DNA of 64,000 bases from Eledone cirrhosa (lineage: Eukaryota): positions 77,500,001-77,564,000 of the forward strand of contig OZ024743.1 in NCBI GenBank assembly GCA_964016885.1, given 5' to 3'. The translations under genes and the position numbers were made by a program. The notes beneath the pieces are model-generated. The model was not told the origin of the DNA. It made no database searches and worked only from the letters and a program-made list of their open reading frames with translations. The first letter of the stretch is position 1. Each line of letters begins with the position of its first letter. This document shows, in pieces, positions 21,793 through 60,500 of this stretch.

Positions 21793-22780
21793 TGTTAGAA
21801 CATGTTTATGCAAAAGCACCTAGGTACGTTTCGCCCGAAAAGGGCTTCTCAAGGGCATACAAATCTAGAGAGTGTTCAATACAGAACCCAGAAGGGGTTT
21901 TAAGATGATAATCTCATCGAAGTTCATTTTTGATTCAAACAGACATGGTTGTTTGCATCACAGAGCAAGGGGGAGTAACTCTGACCGGTGTTTGAATAAG
22001 TGTCCCTAAATGGCTTATTATCCGATATGTTATTTATAGGTGCACTGTAACTAGCCATAATAGCGTCAAATATTGTATAGGGGCCACCTCTGGCTCGTTC
22101 AAAACTAGATTTCGAACGCATCTCCACATCACTCGCCAACTACATCACAACATTGAACAACTCCAACATCAGCTTCTCCACATACTGGGAAATTGTCAGC
22201 AGGGCAACACCTTACAACTTCAAGAGTAAGTGCCAGCTCTGTCTCATGGAGCTTTACCATATCGTAAGAGCACCCCTAGAGCTCATCAACAGCAGAGCAG
22301 AATCTGTGATAAACTGCAGACACAGAAAACAGCAGTCATTCTATGGTTGGACCCCGGTTGATACCTGAACACCATAAACCGGGTGCCCCTGCACCAAACC
22401 ATAACACGCCGGAGGGCAGGGCGCATAACTAAACATCTGTACACCAGCTATGCCTCTTAGATCCGGCCTGACTAAGTAGTAGTAGTGGCACCCATAAAAT
22501 AGTAGTGGAAAACAATCATCATGTGAACGGATAATAAGCCATTTAGGGACACTTATTCAAACACCGGTCAGAGTTACTCCCCTTGCTCTGTGATGCAAAC
22601 AAGCATGTCTGTTTGAATCAAACATGAACTTTGATGTGATTATCATCTTAAAACCCCTTCTGGGTTCTGTATTGAACACTCTAGATTTGTATGCCCTTTT
22701 CGGGCGAAACGTACGTAGGTGCTTTTGTATAGACATATTCTAACAAGTCTGTATTCTCCTTTGTAATCCTTTCATTTATA
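21793..22780 (+). mobile_element. 5'-truncated PLE (GIY-YIG C-terminus) with inverted pseudo-LTR
   Basis: 21793-22024 is the reverse complement of 22528-22745; the core encodes YWEIVSRATPYNFKSKCQLCLMELYHI...INSRAESVINCRH. Confidence 0.85.
21816..21860 (-). ncRNA. Hammerhead motif with U3-A8 core variant
   Basis: Minus strand: gtatgccc-TTGAGAA-gccc ttttc gggc-GAAA-cgtacc-TA-ggtgc; the sister copy at 22689-22722 has lost the core by deletion. Confidence 0.55.
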
Positions 22781-22878
22781 TATATATATATATATATATA
22801 TATATATAAATGAAAGGATTTCAAAGGAGAATTTTTTAAGGGTATGTCAATATTTATTTATAAAACTAACCTATATTA

Positions 22879-22944
22879 TATTTTATCTGATGAAAGCGCA
22901 CCATAGTTTGCTTTGGTGGCCCTTGAAATATGTATAATGAAATA
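22879..22944 (+). ncRNA. Minimal type I hammerhead motif in a solo PLE terminus (about 22835-22990)
   Basis: tattttat-CTGATGA-aagcgcacca...tggtggccctt-GAAA-tatgta-TA-atgaaata. Confidence 0.7.
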
Positions 22945-23601
22945 AATATGGTTTTATAAATATAGTTTCCATTTGTTAATATATTGTATATTTACTCCAA
23001 TAATTTGTTGAGTGCTTTATATCAGTTATAAAAAATATGTAGCTTGTATCCCAACAAATTAAATATAACCTCTACATATATATATATATATATTTAAGGA
23101 GTCAATGCTACGGAGTACGAAGTTAAATTTGTGTGTGTGGGGAAGTTATGGGTGTGAATGTAGGTGTATATGGCACTTAATATATTAGTATATATACCAG
23201 TGTTTGTAAAATAGAATTTTTTTTACCTATTACTGTTTGTTGTGCTAAGCATAAGATATTTTAAGCAACAGGCGGATTGATACGTTTTTATTTTATTTTG
23301 ATATTGTAAGTGTACGTATGTGTGTATATATAATTTATTTATTGAAGTTGTATGTAAGTATGTTTGTGCCTGCCGACCGATGTGTATGAGCAGTTGTTTG
23401 TGGTGGTGATTATATTTCATGTATTTATAGTGGAATAGGTGGAGTGGGTAGCTACTGTTTATTAAACAATATAATGGGCCTGTTTGTCTTGGGTACCTAT
23501 GTGTGCTCAGAGGGATTTGTGGAGGCTGTTCACATGCAATTAGATATTGATATTTCTATAATGCCGTTATTGGAAAGATGTGGTGCGGACCTATTTAGGA
23601 G

Positions 23602-56680: not shown

Positions 56681-57402
56681 ATAAAGAAAAAGAGATGAAA
56701 TCGAAAATGCAACTGGAGTCTTATTTTTTTTTTTTAAATATATATATTTATTTGGTTCCTTTACCGGTTTCGCAGTTCTTCTGCTTTTCAAAAGGTGAGT
56801 TGAGATGGAGGGTCTGTGGTTTTTCTCACATCTGGTTGGTCTCTGAATGTTACTTGTTTTATATGGAAAAAGTGGCTCGAAATGCCAGGTTTTTCGAGAA
56901 GTAATTTGATTGGTTTGTCAATAATTATAATAAATTTCGCGCCAGTTCGCGTTACAATAGTTCTTCAAATAAGAGGGAGGAGAGTTGTCACAGGTTGTTT
57001 TTTCATATATGAGTGTTTGAATTTCTTTTTACTTGAAAAAAGGGGCTCACGAAGGCTTTTTTGGGGTTGGTTATAAATGAAATTATGGCTGTCACGTGAA
57101 CCCCCCTCTTATTTGAAGAACTATTGTAACGCGAACTGGCGCGAAATTTATTATAATTATTGACAAACCAATCAAATTACTTCTCGAAAAACCTGGCATT
57201 TCGAGCCACTTTTTCCATATAAAACAAGTAACATTCAGAGACCAACCAGATGTGAGAAAAACCACAGACCCTCCATCTCAACTCACCTTTTGAAAAGCAG
57301 AAGAACTGCGAAACCGGTAAAGGAACCAAATAAATATATATATTTAAAAAAAAAAAAATAAGACTCCAGTTGCATTTTCGATTTCATCTCTTTTTCTTTA
57401 TA
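56681..57402. repeat. Inverted repeat (about 300-bp arms, about 120-bp spacer), PLE pseudo-LTR type, with a hammerhead in each arm
   Basis: 56681-56980 is the reverse complement of 57101-57402. Confidence 0.9.
57286..57323 (+). ncRNA. Hammerhead motif with U3-A8 core (mirror copy 56758-56795 on minus)
   Basis: cctt-TTGAAAA-gcag aagaa ctgc-GAAAC-cg-GTA-aagg; all three stems pair. Confidence 0.7.
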
Positions 57403-57519
57403 CTTTCACTCGTGTAGGACACCTCGGTTATTTTTCATTTTGTAAAAAAACCTCACTTTCTAATATATATATATATATATATATATATATATATATATAT
57501 ATATATATATATATATATA

Positions 57520-60500
57520 TATGAAAACAGGGAGAAAGAGACGATTATTAGGAAGAAAAACATTTTTTTTCCTTTTTATTTCTTTCTCTCTTTTTTTCTG
57601 GGTTAGAAAATGATTAAAACGAAATGTTTTACTTTGTGTAAAGTGTTAAGGTATTAGTTGATTTATTTATTATTTAACAATGGCATTTATTTATCTATTT
57701 ATATATTTAATAATTGTCTATTACCGGTTTCAACATTTTTATGCATTATCAAATGATAGTGATATATATTAGTGTGGTGTCGCACATGTTAAAGAGAAGG
57801 TGCAGAAAGAATAATGTTATTTACAAACAAGGTTTATGAAGTGAAAAGAAAAAAAAACGAAAAAAAAAATGGGCGTAATGTAGAACATAAAAAGTCAATT
57901 TGAAAGAAAAAATAATGTTATTTACAGGCAGTTCTTGAAGTTAAGCAGATCAAAATATGTTAATATACCAAGAGTGCTTAGTTGATCCATGATTCCATGA
58001 TGGAGGCAAATGGTGGACTGAGGTTTGATATGATTTCCCTTTTTAGAGAGTTAATATGCAGGGGGAAGCAATTCTTGCTGGATGATATTTAATTTATTTA
58101 AGAAAAAGGATTAGGTAGGGTGTGAGGGAGGTAACTCTTGTAAATGTTTGATTGTTTGTTGCAGTTTTAGTTTGGTCCGATATTTAGTGCATTAAGTCGA
58201 GGTTGGAATTTGTTAATGAAATATGTTTCCTTATTGGTACGATGGATGAAAGTAGCGTTGTCTATGAATTTGTAAATGGGGAAAATTTTAAAGTTTGGAT
58301 GTTGGTTGTGAGCACAATTAGCGATATGTTCACTAAATGCAATCTTTCTGTATTCTTGTATTTTAATTTGTGATTTATGGACGGTCATACGTTGACGGAG
58401 GCTGTTTTTTGTCTGTCCTATGTAGTGCTCTTGACAACCTGAGCAGGTCAAAACATAGATTAGGTTTTCAGATGCACATGTAAAGTTGTGTTTAACTGTG
58501 AAATGTTGTCCTTGTTTAAAATGGAATGTTTAACCTTCTATTAGATTTATGCATATGCCACAGTTGGGCCTTCCGCATTTTGTTACTGTAGGGTTCATTG
58601 TGAGGATGTTTTTTATGGACTTAGGTTGTCTTTTTCTCTTTATGATGTTGTGTGTTTGGAGGATTTTGTTCATTCTTGGGTCTCTTTTTAGTAAAGGAAT
58701 GTTCTGGAGGATGGTGTCGAATGCCTCATTGTTGAGGGGGTTGTGTGTGGAGATGTATGGTAGAGTTTTTTGTGGCGGTTCATTCCTGGGCTTTGGGTGT
58801 CTGAGTTCCTGGATGTCTAGTTTTACGGCACGTTGGAATCCATTGGTGATTAGGGATGGTGGGTAGTTTCTGCTGATAAGTGTGTTTTTTAATTCTTCTA
58901 GTCGTGTGTAGCACGTGTATTTATCTGAAACTATTGTGCAGATCCTTCTGGCGAGGTTATAAGGAATTGCCATTTTGGTGTGTCTAGGGTGGCACGAGTT
59001 GAATGGGAGGTATTGTTTGGAGTCTGTGGGTTTGCAGTATATGTCTGTTTCTATTTTGTTGCTTGTTTTCTTGATGAGGATGTCGAGGAAAGGGAGTTGT
59101 TCATGGCTGTAATCCATTGTGAATTGTAAGTTTGTGTTGAGTCCATTCAGAAGGGTTTTAAACTCAAATAGCCTATCTATACTTTTATGCCAGAGGATGA
59201 AGCAGTCGTCCAGATATCTCTTCCAGTTCTTTTCTATGTGTTGGTAGAAGTGGTTGCCGTATTTGTCTAGAACTTTGCAGTAGAGAGTGGTTTCCAAAAA
59301 TCCCATGACAAGGTTGGCGTATGAGGGGGCTACTTTCGTGCCCGTGGCAGTCCCAGATTTCTGTCTGTAGTATTTGGCATTGGATTCGAAGAAATTGTTT
59401 TCCAAGATGAATTTGAGTCCCTCCAACACAAATTCTTTAGGGATGCGCTGTGGGAGTTCCATAGGGAAATTTTCAAGCCAGAATTGTATTGCCTCTATAC
59501 CTAGGTTGTGTGGGATATTGGAATATAAATTGATGACATCAAAGGTTACTAGTAGGGTATGTTAATTATTGATTGTTGTTAGGAGGTGGTTGAGCATGTC
59601 AAGGTCGTCCCTTATGAAGCTTTTTATGGGTTTTAGGAAAGGTTTAAGCAGAATATCTAGGAAGTTGCTTAGGCGGTGGGTTTCACATGTGGTGCCTGCT
59701 ATTATGGGTCTTAATTTAAGGTCATCAGGAGGGGCTATATTGATGTAAACGTCTGTGGCTTGCTTGCAGGCCCTACCTATTACTTTGCTTTTGTGTGCCT
59801 TTGGGATACCGTAGAAGAGGCTGGTTCTGCTTTTGAAATTGGTGATGTAGTTGTATTCCTTGTCTGTAAGACCTTCTTTGTAAAGGGTTGTTAGGGATTT
59901 TAGGTTTCTCATTATTTTCTGTTGTGTGTAGTGTTGGGCCTTTTCATAATATGTTAGGTTTTATAGAGTTGAGAGTACTAGAGTTGTGTAATAATCTGTC
60001 TCCATAAGGACTACTGCACTCCCTTTATCTGCCTCTTTGATTGTTAGGGTTTTGTCGTTTTTTAGACTGTTAAGACCATTCCATTCTTTTTTGCTTAGGT
60101 TTGGTTTTTGTTTATGTCTGTGTAGGTGGTGGTATGGGTAATTAGTAATGTGTTCGCAGAATTGATCGAGGAATTTGTTCTTGCCTTTTGGTGGGATGTA
60201 GTTGCTTCTATTTCTGGCTATTGAGTCATCCTCATTGTATTTGTCGTATAGTTGTTCGCTGAGTCTTAGCTTTCTACAGAATTCTGCAATATCTTCCTTC
60301 ATTTCGGGGTAGTTTGGTTGTTGGGGAGTTGGTGTAAATTTTAGACCTTTGGAGAGTATGTTGATTTGGTCTCTTGTTAATTCTTTAGAGGTTAAATTGA
60401 CAATTTTTATTGCATTTTTTGTCTCCTGCGTGTTTTGTGTTATCTTGTTATCCCGTGTCTGTGTGCTGTGTCTAAAAAATGATTACGGAAGTTGTGATGG

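Follow-up and report, generated by a model that had tools for sequence, protein, structure and literature searches.

U3-A8 was found to be the inherited family consensus of the hammerhead ribozyme core, and not a product of its decay, in all four Penelope-like element (PLE) families that carry such motifs in a 64,000-nucleotide stretch of the Eledone cirrhosa genome (assembly GCA_964016885.1, contig OZ024743.1, positions 77,500,001 to 77,564,000; the whole stretch is referred to below as the window). The window is a patchwork of satellites, long interspersed nuclear element (LINE) fragments and PLEs, and six U3-A8 minimal type I hammerhead motifs lie in it within the 3′ terminal repeats of the four PLE families, designated A to D. 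All six were confirmed at the coordinates given for them in an initial annotation of the window. The motifs and the parts of elements that accompany them, including open reading frames (ORFs), are as follows:

21816..21860 (-), motif 21821-21852: family B (Hydra-type PLE) hammerhead with core UUGAGAA / GAAA, lying within a fold-back insertion, on its inverted arm
22689..22722 (+): family B 3′ mirror hammerhead with an 11-base deletion, helix III palindrome intact
21793..22776 (+), ends approximate: family B fold-back insertion with inverted arm, endonuclease fragment at ~22017-22350 (+) and 3′ end at (TA)n
48815..48845 (-): family D (Neptune-type) hammerhead, located at the element's 3′ end and carrying U3-A8, the A13C of the family and a copy-level G12A
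51755..51793 (+), motif 51759-51789: family D hammerhead, UUGAAAA...ACAAC, in an inverted terminal repeat, same sequence as 48815-48845
49957..51036 (-): family D ORF, 5′-truncated, with the C-terminal part of reverse transcriptase, CX4CXXC linker and GIY-YIG endonuclease
56758..56795 (-), motif 56762-56791: family A (Neptune-type) hammerhead in the mirror arm, UUGAAAA
57286..57323 (+), motif 57290-57319: family A hammerhead, CCUU-UUGAAAA-stem II-GAAA-CCGG-UA-AAGG, same as the family majority
57718..57759 (-), motif 57722-57752: family C (Neptune-type) hammerhead with core UUGAUAA / GAAA, the endonuclease lying 435 bases upstream
58167..60482 (-): family C ORF with stop codons inside, GxKF and DKG motifs, reverse transcriptase, CX4CXXC linker and GIY-YIG

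Families A, B and C fit the core order stem I - N3 U4 G5 A6 N7 N8 A9 - stem II - G12 A13 A14 A15.1 - U16.1 H17 - stem I, and helix III is palindromic and dimer-permitting in all four families (ACCGGU in A, C and D; ACGUACGU in B). A strict pattern, optimistic in that it was drawn up with the motifs already known, gave six matches in the window; in 100 order-2 Markov resamples the mean was 0.01 and the maximum 1. Stem I was a clean 4 bp only at 57286-57323, with three A-U pairs at 51759 and two contiguous pairs at 21816 and 57718. As read from the sequence, stem I of families B and C can be extended beyond its first two pairs by two more, from which a single bulged base on the 3′ strand separates them; this bulged form may be a tertiary contact with loop II that the two families share.

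Some of the window copies have private changes. The helix III palindrome of family B is broken by a private mismatch at 21816 (ACGUACGU being present in 20 of 28 other copies), and the family C copy at 57718 has a private C-to-U in stem II. At 22689-22722 (+), the 11-base deletion lies between two GCCC repeats and takes out the UUGAGAA core together with the 5′ arm of stem II; the two arms of the family B insertion are therefore unlike, with the core deleted in one and the helix III mismatch in the other.

Family consensus across the genome

For each motif region, DNA searches of the 3.0 Gb animal genome produced 434-1,899 candidates; 40 of these were scored and the best 30 aligned. U3-A8 was present in 30/30 aligned best copies of family A (57286; two rows being the window itself, and copies nearly 100% identical), in 29/29 best-matching copies of family C (57718), in 28/28 of family D (51759) and in 25 of the 28 non-window rows of family B (21816), the others comprising two C3-A8, one U3-G8 and zero C3-G8. 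Pattern matches over the whole genome, which count copies and not independent events, amounted to 20,500 for U3-A8...GAAACCGGUA (control 17), 12,202 for U3-A8...GCAACCGGUA (control 5) and 2,444 for the Hydra-type U3-A8 pattern (control 52). C3 with either 3′ half was matched 216 times (control 21), mostly by single-base variants of the U3-A8 families, while C3-G8 with a spare base gave 16,110 matches (control 320) and the U3-G8 pattern 1,095 (control 508). On account of these counts, the families seen can be regarded as either C3-G8 or U3-A8, with mismatched 3/8 states sporadic.

Random decay of CUGANGA in old copies could in principle have produced U3-A8 cores, as private damage is present in three window copies and C-to-T and G-to-A changes are common in this A+T-rich genome. 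However, a C3-G8 majority was seen in no family, family A is near-identical and U3-A8 throughout, and mismatched states represent only 0.7% and ~4% of the respective family counts. Decay is refuted by the family alignments and counts and appears scarcely credible; the CUGANGA family consensus, which the initial annotation had set as the outcome that would speak against its claim, appeared in neither.

A further U3-A8 family (loci L280, 4400-4520, and L312-L341) keeps a spare base after A9, has A, C, U or G at N7 and occurs as very short fold-backs. Origin of U3-A8 by one-base deletion from CUGANGAA via the spare base, an idea taken from one locus with both states, was not supported; the spare-base family behind it has U3-A8 with the spare base kept, and its C3-G8 arm is one of 27 parsed motifs (11 more matches unparsed). 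A C3-G8...GCAAC repeat (L197, L198) was rejected as a hammerhead because its stems are absent.

Clade assignment of the four families

The initial annotation had placed the motifs in at least two unrelated PLE termini, and two deeply separate clades, Neptune-type and Hydra-type, were indeed distinguished. Protein identity is 70-74% between families C and D and 53% between A and D, and the three families form one clade. Neptune/Nematis PLEs are marked by GxKF, DKG, a CX2-5CxxC linker before the C-terminal GIY-YIG and (TA)n targets (PMC8557442); GxKF and a CX4CXXC linker are present in A, C and D and DKG in C and D, with (TA)n targets, and these sequence marks assign the three families to the Neptune (or Nematis) clade. 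Family B, a short element ending at (TA)n, is assigned to the Hydra clade by a CxCX5C linker in four B-group loci (L261, L263 and L271 by pattern, L272 read directly) and an RWK motif in L272; no DKT motif was found among the six decayed or truncated family B loci scanned. The hammerhead lies downstream of the reverse transcriptase / GIY-YIG frame and on the same strand, at 270-335 bases in family B, 435 in C, ~1,020-1,120 in D and 1,381 in A (one locus).

In a tree of 15 endonuclease segments (three loci with short matches left out), Neptune-type and Hydra-type elements split at 100/100, and the C3-G8 and U3-A8 Hydra-type families were not separated. Independent origins of U3-A8 in the two clades are likely. 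As A, C and D belong to one clade, the window represents two lineages and not four cases, and the earlier argument for selection, drawn from a joint change of both positions in 'every case', was not supported.

The search for PLE protein homologues found 125, the named ones being from bivalves. In a family D copy (L267, 5671-4307, -), a 455-residue open frame lies upstream of the reverse transcriptase frame and overlaps it in another reading frame, which suggests that an ORF1 is linked to it through a frameshift; near 60700-61100 in the window there may be a decayed counterpart.

Position 13 in family D and neighbouring features

Decay of GAAAC to ACAAC, as initially proposed for the motif at 51759, turned out to be wrong; only the G12A change is a product of decay. 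The family D consensus is GCAAC (24/28 other copies, with C13 in 28/28), and the window copy carries G12A, at a CpG, on top of the family-fixed A13C. Over the whole genome, the family D pattern has C13 in 12,202 matches and other bases (a mix of A, G and T) in 153, and C13 is common to two family D subfamilies ~7% apart (51/63 segments kept). Contigs of three public runs had G at 51780 (G12) and no difference at 51781 (C13); C13 is therefore not an assembly error. Family D thus departs from the minimal type I PLE hammerhead, of which A13 is a criterion. Recurrence of A13C across several families was considered and rejected, a second GCAA family (G) being mostly GAAA with C13 sporadic.

An Rfam covariance scan of the window (E<=1) returned no hammerhead, missing even the five canonical C3-G8 motifs. 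Three of these are CUGAUGA hammerheads at 22887-22936 (+), 34128-34177 (-) and 37785-37833 (-), with stem I of 8 bp, a long stem II and UAUGUAUA in the helix III region; upstream of the second there is a decayed Hydra-like frame (35703-36605, -). A canonical minimal hammerhead at 38468-38495 (+) belongs to a C3-G8 family that is very abundant and accounts for more of the 16,110 C3-G8 matches than any other; in one of its copies a divergent PLE frame lies 406 bases upstream. The CUGAAGA hammerhead at 52093-52130 (-), with a 4-bp stem I and non-palindromic helix III, is located in a short repeat that seems to adjoin Neptune-type ends, and similar sequence follows a family A end in locus L164.

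The rest of the patchwork includes minisatellite arrays at 1-1177, 4062-6403, 10516-13061 and 26526-30714 (units of 48, 24, 52 and 44 bases) and LINE copies at 38938-42489 (-) and 43044-46202 (-), one of them with a 921-residue reverse transcriptase frame and, upstream, an endonuclease frame, the other broken, with reverse transcriptase and zf-RVT domains.

Copy ends, known systems and possible roles

Copies extended beyond the predicted cut by 40 or more bases in 98 of 100 cases (A 26/27, B 22/22, C 23/23, D 27/28, where the family C sample is biased, having been picked for having downstream sequence, and four rows at locus edges were omitted overall), running to one or two fixed ends: near +80/+143 in A, +61/+200 or more in B, +200 in C and +134/+166 in D. 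In the window, the family A arms at 56758..56795 and 57286..57323 end 78 and 143 bases past the predicted cut site, the family C element ends ~200 bases beyond 57718..57759 at (TA)n, the family D arm at 51755..51793 ends at (TA)n ~125 bases past the predicted cut site, and the family D element continues ~165 bases beyond 48815-48845. Because copies extend past the predicted cut, their template RNA would have been uncut, or rejoined, at the 3′ motif. Monomer folds had no excess stability over shuffles for any motif (z -0.9 to +0.7); the helix III palindrome is too short for good closure in a monomer. For the family A dimer, the hammerhead fold (-18.9 kcal/mol) was within 1.4 kcal/mol of the minimum (-20.3 kcal/mol).

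Novelty of U3-A8 was not supported by the literature. Natural U3-A8 covariation, with earlier in vitro activity cited, is described in section 8 of Perreault 2011 (PMC3088659). The 3-8 pair covaries there as it does here, and stem II can likewise start with U10.1-U11.1, as in family C; unlike here, the motifs are not presented in that section as belonging to PLEs, nor is any natural C13 variant mentioned in it. Cervera and de la Pena 2014 (PMC4209133) reported ~1,300 U3-A8 matches in Schistosoma mansoni, in PLE terminal repeats. Among the rows of its supplement, one with U3-A8 belongs to a Cercyon element, the counterpart of which in S. japonicum is C3-G8 with a near-identical stem II, and Fig. 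S3 contains the U3-A8 rows UUGAUAAA and UUGAAAAA. The S. mansoni Cercyon hammerheads resemble the present ones in being type I, with a short helix I, palindromic helix III and U3-A8, in their position in PLE terminal repeats and in the occurrence of opposite-strand pairs 100-700 bp apart. In contrast to them, the window families are Neptune-type and Hydra-type with ~35,000 matches, in families A-D A9 is not followed by a spare base and helix III has a palindromic insert of 2 or 4 bases, and the A13C of family D is absent from the supplement rows compared.

No paper on U3-A8 in Neptune- or Hydra-type elements of such hosts was found in the literature searched, and its presence in them is a wider range of a published phenomenon, not a new kind. 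A 2017 paper by Lunse, Weinberg and Breaker reportedly deals, to go by its title, with small PLE-linked hammerhead variants cleaving as dimers, and may list U3-A8 or C13. A printed natural A13C hammerhead was likewise not found in the literature searched; Lunse 2017, Nelson and Uhlenbeck 2008, Przybilski and Hammann 2007 and the PMC3088659 supplements lay outside its coverage and may bear on the point.

In the Anolis carolinensis element PAc (Poseidon), as far as PMC11167929 describes it, reverse transcription has two start sites, both located past the ribozyme, which cuts only with the element's protein and whose mutants still insert in vitro. PAc is alike in its terminal-repeat hammerhead with two fixed copy ends past the cut, leaving an optional tail, and unlike in its C3-G8 core and its measured activity.

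We consider it quite likely that the motifs are slow dimer- or protein-assisted hammerheads kept by selection, with cutting unneeded for each copying event. Cutting would depend on the pairing of two copies via the palindromic helix III, or on assistance by the protein of the element, and would probably serve to trim tandem or read-through transcripts, while selection on source elements would keep the Watson-Crick 3-8 pair. The reverse-copied RNA would still be uncut at its 3′ motif, and with copying from uncut RNA cleavage activity may therefore be low; such slack in the need for cutting would allow family D to fix A13C and a weak stem I, yet expand.

Selection is suggested mainly by comparison between families. 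Families A, C and a fourth family, G, are identical at 16/16 core and helix III positions (15/16 with D), an identity inflated by the fact that families were partly found through the motif, and 160 upstream bases among them align at 0.50-0.66 vs 0.55-0.60 in shuffles (D2 rows were dropped because of a truncated representative); stem II base pairs change from family to family. This comparison offers better evidence for selection than the window cases. The within-family signal is weak, core vs flank conservation giving p = 0.046 for family B singletons and p = 0.13-0.64 (not significant) for the others. Together with the inflation just mentioned, these tests weigh against our explanation, as do three other results: with contiguous stem I only and no bulge, the dimeric hammerhead fold of B, C and D is 9-12 kcal/mol or more above the minimum; the endonuclease tree is compatible with a single U3-A8 origin; and the success of family D (~12,000 copies) with A13C indicates that an intact core is not required.

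Much of this could also be expected if the motif were retained as a folded signal for protein binding or for reverse transcription, the 3-8 pair serving the fold and catalysis being incidental or lost in all four families. Copies made from RNA uncut at the motif, the weak stem I of B, C and D and the tolerance of A13C in family D all suit such a role, and in the Anolis element ribozyme mutants insert normally in vitro, with no reads ending at the cut in the experiments that PMC11167929 describes. We nevertheless regard it as unlikely, since G5, A6, G12, A14, A15.1-U16.1 and H17 are kept across families with unrelated flanks, beyond the needs of a binding site, and the Anolis motif does cut when given protein (PMC11167929). 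It is more improbable still that U3-A8 and A13C in family D form a fully working co-adapted core, in which C13 is tolerated or its effect is made good in the dimer or by the protein of the element. The 12,202 to 153 predominance of C13 and its presence in both subfamilies are consistent with co-adaptation, as are the intact state of the remaining core positions, stem II and palindrome, an intact-looking 730-residue frame in one copy and the reading of G12, with no change at 13, in three public data sets. However, C13 is fixed in a single lineage only and sporadic in family G, stem I (three A-U pairs) is the weakest among Neptune-type families with contiguous pairs, 7% divergence leaves little power to detect selection on other positions, and A13 changes lower cutting in minimal constructs, for which PMC4075628 cites 10-100-fold inhibition, milder than that from C3, G5, G8 or G12 changes. 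The family D motif is probably weakened rather than a new design. That D is a young Neptune-type family with a working U3-A8 and A13C hammerhead, its defect rescued by the dimer or by its own protein, is a tentative and rather doubtful proposal; if true, family D beside its A13 sister families would provide a ready natural test of the use of PLE ribozymes, both whether they have one and in what way.

Taken by itself the swap contributes little, U3-A8 having already been published for PLEs. The expectation that searches requiring CUGANGA would miss these motifs was borne out: with U3-A8 at ~35,000 matches (three patterns) and C3-G8 at ~16,000 (one comparable pattern), CUGANGA descriptors and Rfam badly undercount PLE ribozymes. 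What bears on the purpose of PLE hammerheads is that sister families differing at position 13 and in stem I strength have all been successful, a contrast that fits the view of cutting as a slow process which not every copying event requires.

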